A stretch of 64,000 bases of DNA from an uncultured Gammaproteobacteria bacterium (GTDB lineage Bacteria; Pseudomonadota; Gammaproteobacteria; JAURND01): assembly GCA_963714975.1 (NCBI GenBank), contig CAVQQD010000003.1, positions 512,001-576,000 on the forward strand, given 5' to 3'. Numbering within the stretch: the first letter of the stretch is position 1; the number at the start of each line of letters is the position of its first letter. Of the stretch, positions 7,925-52,559 are shown one piece after another. The notes under the pieces are model-generated. The model had not been told where the DNA came from and searched no databases. It was given only the letters and a program-made list of their open reading frames with translations. The position numbers and the translations under genes were made by a program.

Positions 7925-8392
7925 CTACGGAGAGGGCATCTGATACAGAGAGTTTTCTTGGACTTCTTCTATAATTAAATCCTCGCGTACAGATTTCATT
8001 GCGCTTATAACCCATTTAAGATCATCAAGATAGATTTTTTTGAAAAGATAAGTAAATGCTGTAACGAACAGTAGTCCTAATCCTTCCCCTGTTAAGGTCA
8101 TACTTTGCTCAGCAGCTTCGTCTAAAGCAGTGTAAGTTTTGTACATGGCATACGGGCTTGCAGTAAATAAAATTAAAAAGGGTAAAACCTGTGCTGCACT
8201 CTTAGCGGCTTGTGCCATTCTCACTTTTTTATAATGATATAGATCGCTATCAGGAAGAAAATTAATTAAGTGAATTCCTTGAACTAAGCTCTGTCTTTCT
8301 GCTGAGGTCGAATTATAAAAACGGTCGATAAAGTCTTTTTTTTGCGCTGGACTGTCCCATAACTGCTTAAACTTATACCCCTCCTCCCCAGG
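7925..8392 (-). pseudogene. Two-TM coding fragment; frame stays open up to the MITE edge
   Basis: ORF 7925-8224 extends without a stop to 8392 (PGEEGYKFKQLW...); acidic C-terminus. Confidence 0.5.
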
Positions 8393-8442
8393 CTATCCGA
8401 TGCACATAAATTCGGTCAGCAATTGTAAGTCACCACTTGTGT

Positions 8443-8448
8443 TAAAGT
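8443..8448 (+). promoter_or_regulatory. -10 box of a predicted circle-junction promoter
   Basis: Circularisation gives TTGATT-N18-TAAAGT with an extended TG, upstream of the bridge RNA. Confidence 0.55.
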
Positions 8449-8454
8449 AGTTCC

Positions 8455-8625
8455 TAAGAGAGAAAAGGCTCCCTCGCAAGAAGGAGCCTGCGGGCGTGAG
8501 CGACCGGTCAGCAATAGGTTATACAGCCGTGGGAATCAAGGTACTCTAGCCCTAACTCTCGATACGTTTGAATAGTTCATTTGGGACTAAAGCTCCCGCT
8601 TACAATCGTAAATATCGAGGTTACC
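8455..8625 (+). ncRNA. IS110 bridge RNA (5' hairpin, target-binding loop, donor-binding loop); ends approximate
   Basis: Guides at 8505-8515, 8529-8536, 8572-8580 and 8598-8606 match target and donor flanks; closing stems visible. Confidence 0.85.
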
Positions 8626-9579
8626 ATGAAATTGTATAGTTCTTTTATCGGTATGGATATAGGGAAATTTAATTTTGTTGTTGCCTTACATGGAGAAAAG
8701 ATCACGAAAGAGTATCCAAATAGCGCTGAGGGCATTAAGGATTTTTTAAAAGATTATGAAGAAATTTTACCCACAGCATTTTGTGTGGTTGAAACGACAG
8801 GGGGTCATGAAAAAATTTTGTTACTGGCCCTGCGTTCTAATAGATATGCAGTCCATCGTGCAGATACTAGGAAAGTAAAAAACTTTATCCATTCCTATGG
8901 TAAAAAGGCAAAAACAGATGCATTAGACGCTAAAGGACTAGCCCATTATAGTTATGAAAGGTATCAGGAATTAGATATTTATGAACCTCCTGATGAAACG
9001 GATATAGCACTTTTTACATTGGTAATGCGTAAAAATGATTTAACAGAGATGCTGGTTGCTGAAAAAAATCGCCTTAAATCGCCTAATAATCATGAAATAG
9101 TAGAAATAAGTTGTAAAAAAATGATTACCATGCTCTCGGAAGAAATCAAATTGCTCAATGAGAAAATAAATGAGCTGATTGAAGGTGTACCTTATTTAAG
9201 GGAAAAAAGGAAAGTTTTAAAGAGCATTCCAGGGATTGGTGATGTGCTGAGCTGTGAATTGATTACTTTATTGCCTGAACTAGGAACACTGGATAGGAGA
9301 AAAATAGCTGCTTTAGCTGGGTTAGCTCCTCAAGCAAATGAGAGTGGCAAATACAAAGGATACAGGCGCTGTGGTTATGGTCGTCAAGGAGTGAAGCCAA
9401 AATTATTTCTCGCTGCCATGGCGGCAAGGAATTCAAATTCGCATCTAAAAGTCTTTTATGAAAAATTGGTTGGGTCAGGTAAAAAGAAAATGGTGGCTTT
9501 AACCGCTTTAATGAGAAAAATTTTAGTCATCGCCAATGCAAAGGTAAGAGATTTCAATAAAGAATATAATTTGGCTTGA
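8626..9579 (+). CDS. IS110-family DEDD recombinase/transposase
   Basis: IGMDIGK, VVETTG, KTDALDA, SIPGIG, AGLAP...ESG and KMVALTALMRK motifs; frame intact. Confidence 0.95.
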   Translation: MKLYSSFIGMDIGKFNFVVALHGEKITKEYPNSAEGIKDFLKDYEEILPTAFCVVETTGGHEKILLLALRSNRYAVHRADTRKVKNFIHSYGKKAKTDALDAKGLAHYSYERYQELDIYEPPDETDIALFTLVMRKNDLTEMLVAEKNRLKSPNNHEIVEISCKKMITMLSEEIKLLNEKINELIEGVPYLREKRKVLKSIPGIGDVLSCELITLLPELGTLDRRKIAALAGLAPQANESGKYKGYRRCGYGRQGVKPKLFLAAMAARNSNSHLKVFYEKLVGSGKKKMVALTALMRKILVIANAKVRDFNKEYNLA

Positions 9580-9870
9580 AAGAGCACCAAGGAGGGTGCG
9601 GTCAAGCCAAATCGACAAGCCCGCTCAGCGGGCGCGTCAGTAGGGAGAAACCCTAGTTTAGGCTGGGGTTTATAGACTTGTATGCTTAAAAATTTTATTT
9701 TTTTAAAATTTTTAAGACATAGTTGATTCCCGCTGAAACCTTGCTCCCCCGACGGGTCCTGCCGCGCTGCGGCCACCCCATCGTGCTCGTTCCTGCGCGC
9801 GTTGGGGTCCCCGCCAGCGGCAGCAAGGCTTCAGCGGGAATTGCTGACCGAATTTGTGTGCATCGGATAG

Positions 9871-10438
9871 CTTCATAGAGAGCACCTGTGTGATTGGGAT
9901 TCGTTATGAGTACATTACAGTAGTGGTTTATTGCGCTGGCAGGAGACGATAGCTTTCCTAGATGATATTCATTCTCAACATGATTCGAGTTTTGCTGCCA
10001 AATATTCCAAACTACCGAAGGTGGGTGATTAAAAATATTGGAATCTTCAGGAATTTTAGAGGCTTCGCCTATACCAATCAAAAAAGCTAATCGACTTGTG
10101 GCATCAATATCGCCGGGATTTTTTCTCAAAACAGCTCGGCAAAGATCCGCTCCTTTTCTTCCTTTTATAGTCAAATAATCGGCTTTACGCCGTTCTGGGT
10201 AATCTTCAGCAATATTTTTTGGCGAGGGTGTTTCCTCTTCTTGAGAGTTGGGTAGAATTTCCTTAGTTTCTTTGATGCGATTTTTCCATAGGGGATGCTC
10301 CTGCTGCTCACTAAAAATTTTCGTATTTTTTGAAATACGAGCCATTACAGCTAAGTCTCGGTCAGCAAGAAAATCATAGACATAAAGCTGCGGATCAACC
10401 GCCAGCTCACTCAAGTGTTTTGGTTTATCTTCAGCCAT
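9871..10438 (-). pseudogene. F-box-like protein (candidate effector) truncated by the MITE/IS110
   Basis: LSELAVDPQLYVYDFLADRDLAVMARISK...LW fits the F-box pattern; ORF runs into the MITE. Confidence 0.6.
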
Positions 10439-39677: not shown

Positions 39678-40136
39678 ATGGTGAAGAAAATATTCCGTGG
39701 TATAGGTCGCATATTTTTTCCTATTCGCAACGTGAAACGTGCGCTTGGGCTAGCAGAATTGAAAACTAGTTTTCAAAATTCTCGAGAGACTTTACAAAGT
39801 ATCTTCACTCCTGCTAAAACCAAGGTGGTAAAAGAAACTTTTGAAGAGGCGATGGTGCGTTGTCAATTGACTGAAGATTCTTTGCGAGAACGTCTAAAAA
39901 GTCTGATAATTACCATGAGTGTTTATGCGGTATTAGCAGTTATTTGTTTTGCGTATGCAATTTATATGTTGTCTATAGGACTTGTGTTAGGAGCGTTTAT
40001 TTCATTTGTGCTCACAATTACAGCTGTAGGGTTTGCCTATCGAGACCATTTTTGGTACGTGCAAATCAAATGCCGGCGTTTAGGCATGAGCTTTAAAGAC
40101 TGGGCCCATTATACTTTCGGGAGTATTAAAAAATGA
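39678..40136 (+). CDS. icmV: Dot/Icm protein IcmV
   Basis: ETFEEAM...LTE, two TMs, HFWYVQIK.RRLG; directly upstream of dotA. Confidence 0.88.
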   Translation: MVKKIFRGIGRIFFPIRNVKRALGLAELKTSFQNSRETLQSIFTPAKTKVVKETFEEAMVRCQLTEDSLRERLKSLIITMSVYAVLAVICFAYAIYMLSIGLVLGAFISFVLTITAVGFAYRDHFWYVQIKCRRLGMSFKDWAHYTFGSIKK

Positions 40137-43031
40137 TAAACCGGCTCAGACCAGTCTTTCTATGCCTTCTGCTTTTTTTACCGATTGCTGCTTTTGCAGA
40201 TATCGCTAGTGTCCTTGGGTTCCTTACGCCTTCACAGGGCGAATTTTCTATCAACTTGCTCTCCAGATTCTTAGGTAGTTTGGGGGGTGTTCTTTATGGG
40301 GGCGGTAATCAAATTATTGGTTCCTTGATGGGGATTATCAATAGTTGCGCCGTGATTCTCATCGGCGTTGCCGTTTGTTTTACCGTATGGGATGGCGTAG
40401 TGACTTCAGCTGCCAGCGGCGAAATGATGTCCAATAAAGGTCGCAAAACCGTATTTACTATTTTAAGGATTGTAGTGGGTTTTTGTTTAGTGGCTCCTGG
40501 CCCTACGGGTTATTCATTAGCACAATCCGGTGTCGCTTGGGTAGTCGTCCAAGGGGTTGGTTTAGCGGACCGGGTTTCTGACAAACTGTATACCTATATT
40601 AACGATGGCGGTAAGGTCTTTACCGTCCAACCCTCAGGTCTTGAAGATATCAAACCTTATTCGCGGATTAGTAGTGCTATTCTGAAATCAGCCATTTGTA
40701 TGTATAAATTACAGGACATTCAATTGGCTGAGCAACAAGCAACCGAAGAAGCTCATAAAGCCGCTATGGAATCGGAGGTGAGTACGGGTATCCTGTTGCC
40801 GGAACTCAAAACAGCTGATGAAATTGGCTACAGTGTGAATAACAATAATACGATTACCTTTGGCAGTAAAAATCCTGACTATAATCCAGGTGATCCCGAA
40901 TCCACGATGTATAAAAGCCAGTGTGGCCAAGTGGCTTTTACTGTGAGTGATGCTACCTTAGGTTTGCGCTTAGGTGGTACAGGGACTCCAGAGCAAATTG
41001 GGCAAGAAAGAAAAGTGGTGCTGGGCTATGTCAAACAGGCAGCAAGTGAGACAGTGCAAAATCTATTACCAGTCGCCAAAGAAATTTCCACTTTAAACAA
41101 GAAAGATCCTGATTTTGATAAGACTCTGAACAATGTCAATGCTCGGGCGGTCGGGGCGATGGTCGGGGCTGGGATGAGCTTTGCTACTATGATGGATCCG
41201 GCACGGCGCCGCTCTGCCGCTTACATGCAGGATGAGGTTAAAAAATTAATTGAAGATATCCACCAAAATGGTTGGATGTATACCCCCTTATTGGTGATGA
41301 CGCCCGTATTAACGGAAGCGCAAGTAATCAGTGTTCGTGCCTATAATCCCGATGCAAAGGCCCCTGATTTGACGATCAGTTATTTCGATGATATCGACAA
41401 GAAGGCTAGGGAGGATTTGGCTTACTTGGTTGGGTTAGTCGATAACGAAGGCTATGTCAGTGATGCCAATCAATTACTTTACGAGGTCATGAGAAGTAAT
41501 CCAACCTGGAGCAGCATCGATTTTGGCGCCATTGATCCTTATAAAGATAAGGAATATCTCGACACCATCGTCGATTATGTAGATATGATTGTTGGGATAC
41601 CTAAGTCAGTTTTGGGCTGGATTAAAGGAACCCTAAATGTGGGCTTTGACTTAATCACGGGTCTATTTGGCATGCTGGGTAATTTGACTGATATTCTTAA
41701 TCCTGGTAAGTGGCTGGATTTATTGGTACCAGGCATCAGCTTGCCGAGCATGCCAGGCATCGGTGGTGGGGATGAGGTTTCCGATGCAGGTTTGGGGGAC
41801 TGGATTAAGCGGGGTGCATGTTATATAAGTCCTATAACCTGTCTTATACCCGGTGGGGGGCGGCGGCGGCGGCGGTGACGGTGGCGATGGCGGCGGCGGT
41901 GGTGGCAATCCGATTCATGGTATCGTCGATTTCTTGAATCAGCTGCGCGATGGGGCTAACTCCTTGCTGGATGGTCTAACCAGTGGGTTAACCAGTATCG
42001 TCGATTTTGCGAAAGAAAATGCTTATTATTCTAGCAAAGGTGGTATGAATTCGGTATTAGCACAAAAAACGATGGAGAGCATGGGCCCTCTGGGACCCTA
42101 TCTGGCCATGACTATGTCAGCCATGGTGGGAAGGGGGATTGAACAGATGGAGCAGGCCATGTTTATGAGGGGTAAGAGCCCCGAAGTGAACAATGCAATG
42201 GCAGGCGCTATCCGTATGGGTGGCGGCATGATGAAAGCCTCTATGGAAGCTACCTTCCAAATGGCGCATGTATCGTTTTATACCACGATGATTTCTAAGC
42301 TTGCTGGGGCAGGTACCTCTTTCTTCTTAGGAGAGGATGCGGCAAAAACGATCACCGGTATAGGCCAACTTGTGAATGGCGTAGTAGACATGGTGACAAT
42401 TTTCTATGTCAGCTTTGCCCTAATCTTTTTCATGGGTGGCTTATTATTATATGTCGCTTTGCCCTTAACCTTTGTGCTCAATTTTGCTGCGGCGGGATTG
42501 CGTTGGTTAGGTTTAGTGTTTGTCAGTATCTTAGCCGCGCCGATATTTTGCTTCAATCTCATTCGCTCAGATGGCGAAGGCATGATAGGCCGGGGTGAGC
42601 GGTTTTTAATCGACCTGGGGCGTACGGCTTTAATTCCAGTCATATTGACCATGGGCGCCGTGGTGTTCATGATTTTATTTAATATCGGATTTATGTTGCT
42701 GATTTCCATATTGAATATCTTCATGCAGGTGATCATTAAGGTTTACAGCCATGAATGGTTGTTACCCATCTTCTTTGGGGTGATGCTATTAGTGATTGCC
42801 ATGTGTTTACTCTATATGGCGAACGTGTTGGCGAACTTGTGTACGCATGAATTGATCGATGGAGTGGGTAATGCCTTAGGTGAAGCCTTAACCCGCGGTG
42901 GCCATGAAAACCCAATGCACGAGATCAAGCAAGGGGTGCATGGCGCTGGACAGAATGTGGCTGGGGTCCTGAAGGGTCGGGTTGGTAGTGGAAACCAAGG
43001 CAAGGGCGACGCGGGGGGGCAGCAGCATTAA
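40133..43031 (+). CDS. dotA: Dot/Icm protein DotA (TraY family), +1 frameshift in a G-rich tract near 41855
   Basis: LRIVVG..L..P..TGYS..Q...WVVVQGVGLAD, SQCG, ILAAP TM cluster; position after icmV. Confidence 0.85.
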
Positions 43032-49358: not shown

Positions 49359-52300
49359 TTACAACTTCTCCGGGCAGCGAAATTCACTCATGAGTTTGGG
49401 GATAAAGGGATTGATCGGTTTGTCTGCGACCAATTCATAGGGAACCATCATGCCATTGCTAGTGAAATTAAGTGTGTAGAAACTGGTATTAGCGGTATTG
49501 GTCCAATTCGCGCGGTCGAGAAGTTTAAATACAGCCCACTCTCCGGTTTCTTGCCAGCTGGTGTTACCTGCAGAGGTATTAAATTCTAAGCTAGCCAGGC
49601 CAGACTTTGGACCTGGCCAGGTTATTTTTTTAGCGGCACGAAAATCACGCAAGTAATTAATTTCTTGTCCTTCCAAATTGAGCAGATAATTGCCCGACAT
49701 TAATTGCATTGAAGAAGGCGTTAGGGAAAATTGCACTGCGGGGGTTTTTTGATTATCCGCAAAATACATGCGGCGAATTAAAGTAGCGCGATTGAGCATT
49801 TCTAAGTGGGCTTGAGGAATATTGAGGTGTTCGCCATCTACATATTTCCATTGCCAATAAAGTTGGCTGTTGTCCACAAAAGCTAATAGGTTGCGGGTGA
49901 TAAAGCTGTCTAACGTGCCTTGAGAAGAAAAAAACTGGGTAAATTCTGCTAATGACATGTCCGTCGCAGCGTCTTTAACAATAGGGTAGCGATTTTGAAT
50001 GTGCTCGTGGTAAGCAGGCCATACTTCGGCTAGCCACAACAAATTTAAATAACTCCGTGAAGATTGCAGCATACTTCGCCAAGTATTAATACTGAGGGTA
50101 CGTAACCACCCATTAACAGGCGCGGGAGCGGATTTTGCTTCGCTTAATAATTGGGTGATGGGATCGTTCCGTCCGTGCTTTTTCATGCGCATTTGTGCTG
50201 CAGTCAGTGCCGCGCGACCTGGGTCTTCATTTTCGGTGATTGCAGCTAAATAGTGATCTAAATCGCTGAGCGATTTTTGCAAGCTGGTTTGTGCATGGCT
50301 GTTTTCGATAAATTGACTGATTGCTTGGTGAGTACTCATCACAGCAGCAGCTTCTGGAAGATTGGCAATCGGTTGTAAGTTGTTCTCGACTTGCTTGATT
50401 AAAGCCAACAGGGGTGAATTTTCCTGATAAAAACTAGCAGTAAGCTGGCGAGCCTGGTTCAAGTTTTGAAATGGTTGCAGCTGAATATGGGTGAGTTGAA
50501 ATTGCCAAAACAGCGCATAGCGCTGAACGTATAAGCGTCGCACTGCACTGATAATTTGGGCTGTTAAAGGCTCAGCAAGATTGTCGGGTAATTTTAAATT
50601 TAATACCCAATCATCACCCATAGCGAGATGTTGCGCTAATTCTGGTATTTCTCGATTGTAGATAGTATTAAAGTTATCGGCTGAATATAAACTCATCAAC
50701 GGAGCCGCAAAAGTGACACTGTTATTAGCAAGCACTTTCCTCGCAAATGGGATAGAGTCATATTTTTCTTGTAAGTTCAAATAAGTTAATTCGGATAAGG
50801 GCAAGCTATTTAATTTTTGTCGGGCAACTTGGGCAATGGCAGCGTTCACATTAAAATTAGGTGCGGATAAATTAAGCCAGTATGATAAATGCGTCAACCA
50901 TTCTTTTTGATGCTCAGGATCCTGTTGTCGCCAATAATTTCGAAACCAAGCGTGAACAAAATTTTTATCCAAATGAGCAGGGTCATTGAGCATGAGATAC
51001 ACTTTCAGCGCAGAAAATAATTGCTGTGGTTTACTAGTAGTTCCTTGCTGAATTTGCAGTTCTAATAATTTGCTGATATGAGGCGCAAAATCGTTGCGGA
51101 GGTGATAAGTATAATTGGCTGCTAGATTTTGGTGCAGTTCATCCACTTGTTGAAACCAAGCGGTCAGAGGGGCCCTTAAACGTCCATTGGTTATTTCTAG
51201 GGCTTCGTGCAGGTGATTTAAACCCGGTAAAATGATTAGACTGCGCCCGTGGAATGAATCCACGGGCTTGCCCAAGAGGGAGAGCTGCGTCTCTCCCCCT
51301 AGGTAATCCCCCATTGCTTTGCCCATGGGCTGACGCCCTTGGGTAATGGGTAAAAATGCTTGAGTAGTGCTGATATTTAATAAGTGCTGCACATGGTCTA
51401 GTTTGGCTTTGTTATAAAAATAACTTAATGCTGAAGAAAGGGCCCAGGCTAAAAACAGCCCTCCTAATGCAGCGTAAAAATGCTTTTTCTTCATCAAAAG
51501 AAAAGCAGGAATTTTCCTAGTTTGAGGCGATTTGGTTTGGGTAATTTTGCGCAGCATTTGTTGAATAAAATAAGGCTTGTGTTGTGGCATGTAATAATTA
51601 ATTTGTGACTTTAAAAAAGTGGGCAACCCAAAATTGCTTGATACTAGCGCTAAGGCATCGGTGATATTGCCGTCTTGGAAACTGCTGGTGAAATAGACTC
51701 CTCCCAAGCTAGCTTTAGTACTATGTAATTGGCTGGCCAAATTAATAATATGATTTTTTTGCGATTCTAATTGCAAGGGGAAATTTTTAATTTGGACGCG
51801 TTTTTCAATATTGTGTTCTCGGTGCAAACGACTAAGTAATTGTTGATTTAGTCGTTGCAGAAAGGCACTAAATTTTTCTTCTAGGTGAGCAGGCAGATTT
51901 TGTTGCGCCAGGCCAAGAGGTAGAGCAATGCCAAAAGCCTGTTGGCAATCTTCGGGGCTTAGTGCATTAAATGATTCCGTGAATCCTGGGATGCGATCAC
52001 ATTTAGTAAAAATAATGTAGATGGGTAAAAGCGCTTGAAATTGGGTCAAGGTCTGGATGCGATGGCGCAAGACATCAATTTGCAATTGCCGCTGACCTCG
52101 TTGCTTGTGTTGAAATTCATGTAAATCAATGCACAGAATCAGACCGTCCACAGGACGGTAGCGTCGATAACGCCGTAATAAACCAATAAAGCCATTCCAA
52201 ATCATATGGGAGTCATTTTTAGGGTCGTCGGGTAGGACCAAAGTTCCTGAGGTGTCAATAAAAACGGTTTCTTTACCGAACCACCAATGGCAATAAGCGG

Positions 52301-52559
52301 TGGGGCTAGGGTTTTGGACGGTGTGGCCGTCGATGGAAGATAGTTCCAAGCCTTTGCTGGTGAGAAGGCTAGTTTTACCGGCATTTTCTGCTCCTAAGAC
52401 CAGGTACCAGGGCAACTTAGGGCGGAAAAAAAACGTGGTGAAACGATTTTGTTTTAGGTAGTTCAGTGCATCTTCTATGCTTTGGCGTAATACATTTAAT
52501 TTAGCTTTAGCGTGCTCCACGCGCCAATGGACCTGAGAAACTGCTAGGGATTTTTTCAT
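49359..52559 (-). CDS. icmF: IcmF (TssM-like)
   Basis: LPWYLVLG...GKT, CHWWF, IDTSG, TKCD..GF and GEWAVFKL; coupled to icmH. Confidence 0.9.
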   Translation of the reverse strand: MKKSLAVSQVHWRVEHAKAKLNVLRQSIEDALNYLKQNRFTTFFFRPKLPWYLVLGAENAGKTSLLTSKGLELSSIDGHTVQNPSPTAYCHWWFGKETVFIDTSGTLVLPDDPKNDSHMIWNGFIGLLRRYRRYRPVDGLILCIDLHEFQHKQRGQRQLQIDVLRHRIQTLTQFQALLPIYIIFTKCDRIPGFTESFNALSPEDCQQAFGIALPLGLAQQNLPAHLEEKFSAFLQRLNQQLLSRLHREHNIEKRVQIKNFPLQLESQKNHIINLASQLHSTKASLGGVYFTSSFQDGNITDALALVSSNFGLPTFLKSQINYYMPQHKPYFIQQMLRKITQTKSPQTRKIPAFLLMKKKHFYAALGGLFLAWALSSALSYFYNKAKLDHVQHLLNISTTQAFLPITQGRQPMGKAMGDYLGGETQLSLLGKPVDSFHGRSLIILPGLNHLHEALEITNGRLRAPLTAWFQQVDELHQNLAANYTYHLRNDFAPHISKLLELQIQQGTTSKPQQLFSALKVYLMLNDPAHLDKNFVHAWFRNYWRQQDPEHQKEWLTHLSYWLNLSAPNFNVNAAIAQVARQKLNSLPLSELTYLNLQEKYDSIPFARKVLANNSVTFAAPLMSLYSADNFNTIYNREIPELAQHLAMGDDWVLNLKLPDNLAEPLTAQIISAVRRLYVQRYALFWQFQLTHIQLQPFQNLNQARQLTASFYQENSPLLALIKQVENNLQPIANLPEAAAVMSTHQAISQFIENSHAQTSLQKSLSDLDHYLAAITENEDPGRAALTAAQMRMKKHGRNDPITQLLSEAKSAPAPVNGWLRTLSINTWRSMLQSSRSYLNLLWLAEVWPAYHEHIQNRYPIVKDAATDMSLAEFTQFFSSQGTLDSFITRNLLAFVDNSQLYWQWKYVDGEHLNIPQAHLEMLNRATLIRRMYFADNQKTPAVQFSLTPSSMQLMSGNYLLNLEGQEINYLRDFRAAKKITWPGPKSGLASLEFNTSAGNTSWQETGEWAVFKLLDRANWTNTANTSFYTLNFTSNGMMVPYELVADKPINPFIPKLMSEFRCPEKL
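51236..51345. repeat. Family F element, copy 2, in frame within icmF
   Basis: Homologous to 3341-3446; icmF frame stays open across it. Confidence 0.85.

Follow-up and report, generated by a model that had tools for sequence, protein, structure and literature searches.

What is the element that occupies positions 8424-9727 of this stretch, and what has directed it to the place where it lies? The window, by which we mean the whole 64,000-nucleotide stretch from an uncultured gammaproteobacterium, corresponds to C3:512001-576000 of a 2.56-Mb assembly in three contigs (C3 being contig CAVQQD010000003.1). A preliminary description of this DNA, drawn from its letters, had proposed an intact bridge-RNA recombinase of the IS110 group, with an AT core and long guides, that uses a mobile MITE (a transposable element of the miniature, inverted-repeat kind) as a self-propagating landing site. 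We conclude, with a probability of roughly 0.88, that 8424-9727 is a functional-looking insertion sequence (IS) of the IS110 group, whose left-end bridge RNA specifies a site of about 12 bp at the termini of an inverted-repeat family. This conclusion is built on the observed anatomy of the element, its copies and their sites, the complementarity and covariation of its guides, and its homology to known recombinases.

The boundaries of the element are set by empty sites. It spans 1304 bp, with one copy of the AT core counted at its right end, and is composed of a left end of 202 nt, a recombinase gene of 317 aa and a right end of 148 nt, the gene (8626-9579) being its sole long open reading frame (ORF). 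AT is found at both junctions and singly in 29 empty sites, without duplication, and joining the two ends gives a computed donor circle junction that reads ATAGTTG-AT-TGTAAGT. That the flanks might belong to a longer element was rejected, given that empty sites exist and that the outer flanks differ. Every string and coordinate previously given for the element, its flanks, the 5' hairpin and the guides is present in the sequence. These include the flanks (left cggtcagcaat at 8413-8423, right tcccgc from 9728), the closing stems gggcgtgag/ctctagccc and taactctcgata/tatcgaggtta, and the guide strings cggtcagcaat (8505-8515), gtgggaat (8529-8536), atagttcat (8572-8580) and gcttacaat (8598-8606), which are, in that order, the left and right target guides (LTG and RTG) and the left and right donor guides (LDG and RDG). 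The parts of the element and of its surroundings are as follows:

8393-8423, no strand: left inverted-repeat arm of a MITE-like repeat, including the core; effective left target plus core, TCAGCA-AT, at 8416-8423
8424-9727, plus strand: insertion sequence of the IS110 group, with three 100%-identical full copies, one interrupted copy and empty sites
8424-8430, plus strand: TGTAAGT, with which the left end opens; right donor half (RD), conserved in relatives
8440-8448, plus strand: TG-n-TAAAGT, a putative extended -10-like hexamer suggested by a scan of the junction
8466-8489, plus strand: 5' stem-loop of the bridge RNA, seen in the fold; relatives have a hairpin of different sequence at the same place
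8492-8552, plus strand: target-binding loop module, its outer stems pairing 8492-8507 with 8537-8552 (approximate)
8508-8515 and 8531-8536, plus strand: target loop guides, effective LTG TCAGCAAT and effective RTG GGGAAT, delimited by covariation
8517-8528 and 8537-8538, plus strand: apical hairpin of the target loop and handshake dinucleotide CA
8553-8623, plus strand: donor-binding loop module, with an inner hairpin of 8583-8585 with 8595-8597
8572-8580 and 8598-8606, plus strand: donor loop guides, LDG (ATAGTTCAT) and RDG, of which TTACAAT (8600-8606) pairs in all relatives
8607-8608 and 8615-8620, plus strand: handshake dinucleotide CG of the donor loop and 3' stem strand TCGAGG, which is also the Shine-Dalgarno sequence
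8626-9579, plus strand: recombinase gene, 317 aa, with DEDD RuvC-like and Tnp domains
9580-9727, plus strand: right non-coding end, 148 nt, with the left donor half plus core, ATAGTTG-AT, at 9719-9727
9728-9870, no strand: remainder of the MITE-like repeat, with the right target TCCC(GC) at 9728-9733
9835-9846, minus strand: unoccupied copy of the target in the other inverted-repeat arm

The product of the gene matches PF01548 (DEDD_Tnp_IS110; E = 3.9e-19, 69.4 bits) and PF02371 (Transposase_20; E = 9.6e-14, 52.0 bits), both over the gathering score, and reaches 160.7 bits against a cut-off of 140 for NF033542, "IS110 family RNA-guided transposase". Among solved structures (phmmer against PDB), residues 6-304 match the ISCro4 transposase (9t56, E = 9.4e-32) and IS621 (8wt6, E = 4.6e-29). 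The motifs DIG, vvETTGG, KTDalDA and nESGk align with the catalytic motifs of IS621, D11, E56, D98/D101 and S240-G241 falling on its D11, E60, D102/D105 and S241-G242 motifs; in IS621 the residues D11, E60, D102, D105 and S241 are essential (PMC11208158). We predict that D11, E56, D98, D101 and S240 are the catalytic residues. None of the five varies in an alignment of 35 relatives, and the recombinase frame is open in all four copies that carry the gene. The family matches and the catalytic motifs aligned with IS621 and ISCro4 thus bear out the earlier view of an intact IS110-group element.

Where has the element gone in this genome? Three full copies were found, all 1304 bp long and 100% identical in the rounded identity column, the third with a bit score of 2348 against 2352. 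In a fourth copy the right end is split about 95-105 bp from its end (element position about 1200-1210) by an IS3-family element of about 1.4 kb with rve and HTH_Tnp_1 domains, and a fifth locus (C3:400238-400400) holds a left-end fragment of 163 bp at 96% identity. All five left junctions end in CAGCAAT and all four right junctions start with TCCCG, while the empty joined motif CAGCAATTCCCG occurs 29 times genome-wide against 0.2 occurrences expected from base composition. Insertion of other copies at unrelated sites, which would have told against a programmed target, was not seen, every junction present reading CAGCAAT/TCCCG. The longer site ggtcagcaAT/tcccgc that had been anticipated for all copies fared less well: they share CAGCAAT/TCCCG, but the left flanks diverge beyond it, and the 11/11 match between left guide and flank is true of the window copy but not of the other four left junctions, which match at 7-8/11.

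Two of these loci carry further detail. The IS3-family insertion (C3:403869-405270, about L004:2715-4116) lies on the minus strand inside a GC-rich hairpin, encodes ORFs of 97 aa (HTH_Tnp_1) and 282 aa (rve), and leaves the IS110 recombinase frame intact. The 163-bp fragment stands at a ...CAGCAAT junction, ends inside the donor loop, and has A at LDG position 7 where the intact copies have C.

The programming of the element can be read from its relatives. A protein search returned thousands of these, the best 120 being 57-87% identical and nearly all on short metagenome contigs; the relatives found at a protein identity of at least 50% are metagenome sequences in every case. Plasmid-borne annotated relatives are at best 36% identical or less, those nearest in the genomes of the host's order (nine species genomes) and phylum at most 40%, too distant for an RNA alignment, and a single-protein search of genome contigs returned two distant actinobacterial loci only. 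A protein-alignment scan of metagenome contigs provided 80 loci of 50-75% protein identity. Eight with less than 190 nt upstream were left out, the other 72 were aligned with the window (73 upstream regions), and the two-loop region was then realigned for the 70 sequences left once three identical rows had been removed (alignment A2). The upstream alignment has a strikingly conserved scaffold, together with loop segments and a stretch just left of TGTAAGT that vary. At the other end of the element, in the stretch searched 3' of the recombinase gene, ATAGTTGAT is present in most relatives.

Each guide was scored against the flank of the locus to which it belongs and against those found at other loci. 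For the LTG (seven non-core nucleotides, 56 loci including the window) the mean number of matches was 5.41 with its own flank and 2.56 with those of other loci, and for the RTG (six non-core nucleotides, 50 loci) 4.06 and 1.92, respectively; 0 of 2000 permutations did as well in either case. Per-position profiles, from 54 (left) and 47 (right) distinct guide/flank pairs with the window excluded, indicate where this covariation stops. The LTG follows the flank at -8 to -1 only (0.81-0.91 with its own flank), with a cross rate of 0.26-0.41 at five of the six non-core positions and 0.66 at -5; at the two core positions both rates are high (own 0.83 and 0.89, cross 0.77 and 0.89). From -9 to -14 the LTG does not rise above background, C-11 and G-10 being invariant scaffold. 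The RTG follows the core and positions 3-6 (0.94, 0.89, 0.94 and 0.70), is marginal at position 7 (0.40 vs 0.32), and falls to background from position 8.

Because of this per-position covariation, the effective guides are taken to be TCAGCAAT (8508-8515) and GGGAAT (8531-8536), that is, an LTG of six nucleotides plus the core and an RTG of the core plus four. The predicted site specified by the two is about 12 bp long, TCAGCA-AT-TCCC, not far from the 11-14 bp given for IS621 (PMC11208160). The proposal of long guides was rejected on the same per-position evidence: the guide lengths are ordinary, the first three bases, cgg, belong to the non-covarying scaffold, and the covariation of the RTG ends four nucleotides past the core. 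One comparison that the preliminary description had called for, between guides and flanks across homologous elements, came out in its favour, the target-loop guides covarying with their own flanks and the scaffold positions not doing so.

The RNA that would carry these guides has a conserved architecture. The minimum free energy fold of 8455-8625 (-53.3 kcal/mol) contains the 5' hairpin at 8466-8489 and two modules of stem and internal loop. On alignment A2, RNAalifold found the stems of the target loop and the two apical hairpins; the donor-loop closing stem was absent from its prediction, which had a small competing hairpin. That stem, when explicitly tested, is paired in 93.1% of cases, with four of its seven pairs compensatory. 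The structure that we scored was drawn by hand with the donor-loop closing stem added, and comprises 27 pairs in the 70 distinct relatives: 96.3% of 1856 cells are paired, against 88.0% in shuffles, compensatory changes occur in 19 of the 27 pairs, and in 500 shuffles none of the five measures was ever attained. Slid controls, in which partners were shifted by one to three columns, are 31-47% paired. The 5' hairpin, outside alignment A2, is seen in the fold of the window and in the upstream alignment of relatives. The fold, the compensatory changes and the covariation of the target guides in relatives together uphold the assignment of an IS621-type bridge RNA to the left end.

One feature of this RNA touches the gene itself. 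In essentially all 70 relatives the 3' strand of the donor-loop closing stem, TCGAGG, stands 4-6 nt before the ATG and is at the same time the Shine-Dalgarno sequence, and folding of the bridge RNA could mask translation initiation of the recombinase.

In the donor loop, the LDG matches the donor at eight of nine positions, the mismatch being at position 7 (C vs G). TTACAAT of the RDG (8600-8606) forms seven Watson-Crick pairs with the core and TGTAA, followed by a C-G pair (8599) and a terminal G-T wobble (8598). The donor ATAGTTG-AT-TGTAAGT is a feature of the whole clade and is near-invariant in it: the LDG starts with ATAGTTG in 58 of 72 relatives and the RDG is GCTTACAAT in 54 of 72. The AT core is likewise shared, 50 of 56 left flanks ending in AT, as do the RTG in all 73 sequences and the LTG in 58 of 73; the core reported for the window element is indeed AT, but as a property of the whole clade and not a peculiarity of this copy. 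Further pairing lies beyond the right guides, at the so-called handshake bases. In 39 of 72 relatives the RTG is followed by CA, and in 67 of the 72 by C as the first base; the dinucleotide complements the donor TG (C against donor G7). Of the two bases that follow the RDG, the second is complementary to target position 6 in 61% of 38 distinct pairs, as compared with 30% in cross comparisons (0 of 5000 shuffles), and the first gave no signal (34% vs 32% cross).

What, then, is the repeat in which the element lies? Excising 8424-9727 leaves an inverted-repeat element of 174 bp (8393-8423 plus 9728-9870), whose arms are 52 nt each and 94% identical. Compared with the genome by blastn, it gave 89 matches, merged into 52 loci. 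The sites and the repeat largely coincide: 19 of the 29 empty sites fall within a match of at least 28 nt to the window repeat, and five more belong to the other arm of the same inner unit, which differs in sequence, which places 24 of 29 at termini of the repeat family and five outside it. Such inner units measure about 133-143 bp, with CAGCAATTCCCG at one boundary and its complement at the other. All four full-length copies of the IS occupy one terminus of such a unit, the opposite terminus being empty (one with a single mismatch), and without the IS the occupied units measure 126, 161, 88 and 252 bp. The unit of the window copy is nested between an extra pair of outer arms (8393-8415 and 9848-9870), which are themselves a repeat, a 12-nt piece of them occurring 39 times. 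The target was formerly placed inside the terminal inverted repeat of a MITE, which is right for the window copy, but in general it is the terminal 12 bp of the inner unit; nor is the site specific to the MITE with long inverted repeats, other copies being found in other repeat subtypes that share only CAGCAAT/TCCCG.

As to the nature of the repeat, it is short, non-coding and multicopy and has terminal inverted repeats, as expected of a MITE. Among 30 paired termini no target-site duplication recurred consistently (one element is flanked on either side by GAGTAATCAT), and in several repeat elements the flanks are themselves inverted repeats. Inner units of about 135 bp often sit at the exact centre of a longer palindrome, with flanks that are mutual reverse complements (e.g., C3:685535-685672), and we suppose that the unit either inserts into palindrome centres or has inverted repeats of several nested lengths. 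Since no consistent target-site duplication was seen and no search for an autonomous partner was made, the safe label for the landing site is the terminus of a MITE-like or REP-like (repetitive extragenic palindromic) inverted-repeat family. The idea of a mobile MITE as a self-propagating landing site survives in that the site is the terminus of a multicopy repeat, but its mobility and self-propagation are not borne out, target-site duplication not being evident. We also considered the repeat as a non-autonomous derivative of the IS110 element itself, and rejected this since its termini resemble the target and not the donor ends.

Several observations weigh against a bridge RNA that is functional and directs the element to these termini. 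The LDG of the window mismatches its donor at position 7, and its core letters are AT in only 12 of 72 relatives, whereas in IS621 all four guides pair with the core; covariation of the donor guides is unmeasurable because the donor is near-invariant in the clade. The fold of 8455-8625 has a z-score of -2.44, modest alone, 5 of 200 shuffles folding equally well. Rfam returned no RNA family for 8000-10300, its only row being a chance-level internal ribosome entry site (17.2 bits against a gathering score of 100), so that membership of this RNA rests on our own alignment. No sequencing run listed contains more than 0.13 of the sampled element words, and none that matched is an RNA run; they gave four short contig pieces, all inside the recombinase gene, with neither joints nor a circle junction nor an empty site among them, which is uninformative on expression and mobility. 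Only four of 33 perfect sites are occupied (the fragment having lost its right half), and the activity of the element may be low, given how few these are. Finally, nearly all sites lie in one repeat family, and the element's own copies cannot separate bases specified by the RNA from bases conserved in the repeat.

A rival reading is a dual recognition, in which the pairing of bridge RNA over about 12 bp would be joined by a palindromic or structured repeat terminus read by the protein, the repeat family being the real target. The 24 of 29 empty perfect sites at repeat-family termini, and the occurrence of all occupied sites there, agree with it, and a preprint on ISPpu10 reports a stem-loop encoded in the target as an extra specificity gate. 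The other five of 29 perfect 12-mers, outside the family, are not occupied, but with four or five insertions this has no statistical weight, and the left flanks of the five copies diverge past 7-8 nt. We regard such a second layer of recognition as possible, if rather unlikely.

A broader proposal, of two-tier parasitism with co-adaptation, would combine a target loop that has drifted, composite mobilisation in trans, and mutual exclusion of RNA folding and translation; taken as a whole we find it hard to favour and quite improbable. Its first component would have scaffold-adjacent bases also pairing, uniquely among the relatives examined, with the long-armed subfamily (the 11/11 match of the window copy), which would then be a preferred "safe harbour" that multiplies by itself. 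In the second, the IS between intact outer arms (8393-9870) could be moved in trans by the mobiliser of the repeat. In the third, the 3' strand of the donor-loop stem, which covers the ribosome-binding site in all 70 relatives, might make RNA folding and translation of the recombinase mutually exclusive.

It could also be argued that the element is no longer mobile, that its copies spread by duplication or by composite movement of IS plus MITE, and that the matches between guides and flanks are relics. The LDG mismatch at position 7, the small number of occupied sites and the nesting of the window copy in a repeat with both outer arms intact would all suit this view. Against it, the four copies lie in different repeat subtypes (inner 126, 161, 88 and 252 bp) with unrelated outer flanks, which indicates that they were not duplicated along with their surroundings, and three 1304-bp copies at 100% (rounded) with four intact frames argue for recent, independent insertions. 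We consider immobility very improbable.

A chance origin of the guides was approached with 50,000 shuffles of 8455-8625, in which the left-target 8-mer appeared in 165, the 6-mer complementary to the right target in 2529, the 8/9 match to the left donor in 865, and the 7-mer complementary to the right donor in 480. A choice of site by the protein alone, the complementarity between loops and ends being incidental (left, for example, from subterminal repeats), is barely credible, since it is the guide positions, and not those of the scaffold, that covary with the flanks of the relative concerned, all four matches occurred jointly in 0 of the 50,000 shuffles, and homologous recombinases have been solved in complex with bridge RNA (PMC11208158).

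Returning to an IS110-group element guided by its own bridge RNA, how might it move? The expression of the RNA, the junction promoter and the chemistry are put forward here by homology with IS621, whose bridge-recombination cycle is the basis of the proposal (PMC11208160, PMC11208158). The element would excise as a circle with the junction ATAGTTG-AT-TGTAAGT. Excision is described as less efficient than insertion (PMC13626964), and may run on recognition by the donor arm alone (bioRxiv 10.64898/2026.08.31.748434). Circle closure joins TTGAT (9723-9727) to T8424, and the resulting TTGATT, -35-like, stands 18 nt from TG-n-TAAAGT (8440-8448); a -10-like hexamer at matching spacing is present in 38 of the 42 relatives with both ends found, and a scan of the integrated sequence called no such promoter there. 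We suggest that this is a promoter spanning the junction, like that of IS621, which is split across the circle junction (PMC11208160). It would drive an RNA of about 170 nt (about 8455-8625), mainly from the circle.

Once made, this RNA would fold into the 5' hairpin, the target-binding loop and the donor-binding loop, and load onto the DEDD/Ser recombinase. In the target loop, UCAGCAAU equals the top strand of the left target plus the core, and so would pair with the bottom strand. On the circle junction, AUAGUUCAU and (GC)UUACAAU of the donor loop would act likewise. Ser240 would cut beside the AT core, strand exchange being aided by the handshake bases 3' of each right guide, and a Holliday junction and its resolution would follow, leaving the element inserted without duplication.

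The comparison with IS621 of Escherichia coli (PDB 8wt6) sets out what is shared and what differs. Both have the two Pfam domains with aligned D/E/D/D/S motifs and a left-end RNA made up of 5' hairpin, target loop and donor loop. In both the left guides equal the top strand, the right guides are complementary to it, and the guides include a core of two nucleotides; handshake bases after the right guides, a promoter split by the junction (here predicted) and a multicopy repeat as target are also common to them. Unlike IS621, a match that is significant yet distant (E = 4.6e-29), the window element has an AT and not a CT core, an LTG of 6+2 and not 7+2 nt, and an RTG of 2+4 where IS621 has 2+2 (extendable to 7). 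Pairing of the LDG with the core is not conserved in the window clade (AT in 12 of 72), the Shine-Dalgarno sequence here overlaps with the 3' strand of the donor-loop stem, and the target is a MITE-like inverted-repeat terminus instead of the E. coli REP. The ISCro4 transposase (PDB 9t56) is the best sequence match among solved structures (E = 9.4e-32, residues 6-304), a comparison made by recombinase alone.

Other members of the family have similar habits. ISPpu9 and ISPpu10 of Pseudomonas putida reportedly use multicopy palindromic repeats (REP or conserved intergenic) as landing sites, and ISPpu10 is reported to combine pairing with target structure; they have other hosts, repeats and guides, and the likeness is one of description only. 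IS4321 and IS5075, elements of the IS110 family, reportedly target transposon (Tn21) inverted repeats (Partridge and Hall 2003, cited in PMC11208160), and resemble the window element as IS110-family elements inside the inverted repeat of another mobile element, in keeping with the idea of a "parasite of a mobile element". They differ in belonging to the IS1111 group, which has its RNA in a long right end and 7-17-bp subterminal inverted repeats (PMC11208160); in the window element the RNA is in the left end instead, and no long subterminal repeat was seen at the element ends. Targeting of REP by IS110 elements has been described (PMC11208160), and among the papers listed by a literature search none was on an IS110 element directed to MITE termini, which is a weak negative. 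The element thus adds a clean new case to a known mechanism and is no new kind of system; the mechanism and the habit of targeting repeats are already published, and no new question is opened.

Its value lies elsewhere. It is a natural bridge-recombinase system, annotated in full, from an uncharacterised clade whose core is AT, whose target is about 12 bp long and whose donor is near-invariant. The relatives yield a table of guides and targets in which 38 left and 26 right guides are distinct; such a table is of use where bridge recombinases with other core preferences are to be mined or engineered. For the host, the arrangement may matter as well. As the site of about 12 bp is the terminal sequence of a repeat family, the genome offers dozens of near-identical, mostly intergenic landing sites, and confinement of an IS110 element to repeats would limit damage in a small genome of 2.56 Mb with Dot/Icm genes. 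The window holds a DotA/TraY-family ORF at 40133-41878 (plus strand) and an IcmF/TssM-like ORF at 49359-52559 (minus strand), from which it follows that the host encodes a Dot/Icm-type (type IVB) secretion system. Among 5.8 billion proteins, the host's acyl-CoA dehydrogenase has, itself apart, no match beyond 69% identity, and the hits with names were all metagenome-assembled genomes entered as "Gammaproteobacteria bacterium"; the host is thus not closely related to any named species.

A few minor observations concern the neighbourhood and other elements. A 247-aa ORF at 9695-10438 (minus strand), with no Pfam or NCBIfam match, leads from unique DNA through the repeat into the right end of the IS; some 59 of its codons (9695-9870) are repeat or IS sequence, which contributes the last 45-60 residues or so and the stop codon. 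It seems that the repeat inserted at, or immediately beyond, the 3' end of a gene. Many metagenome relatives share a near-identical programmed target, (G)AAGCAAT/CCAG, often within similar GC-rich flanks, which suggests that the clade commonly targets a widespread repeat in other genomes too. Lastly, the genome contains a second IS110-family element, unrelated in DNA, about 1.23 kb long and with a protein about 30% identical, in four copies (C3:467989, C2:1203049, C2:654408 and C3:329203; L016-L019). Three of the four share ...TTTGACA as left flank and, as right flank, a conserved GCCCTAAAGGGCGAGGATTCC..., and thus a different specific site.

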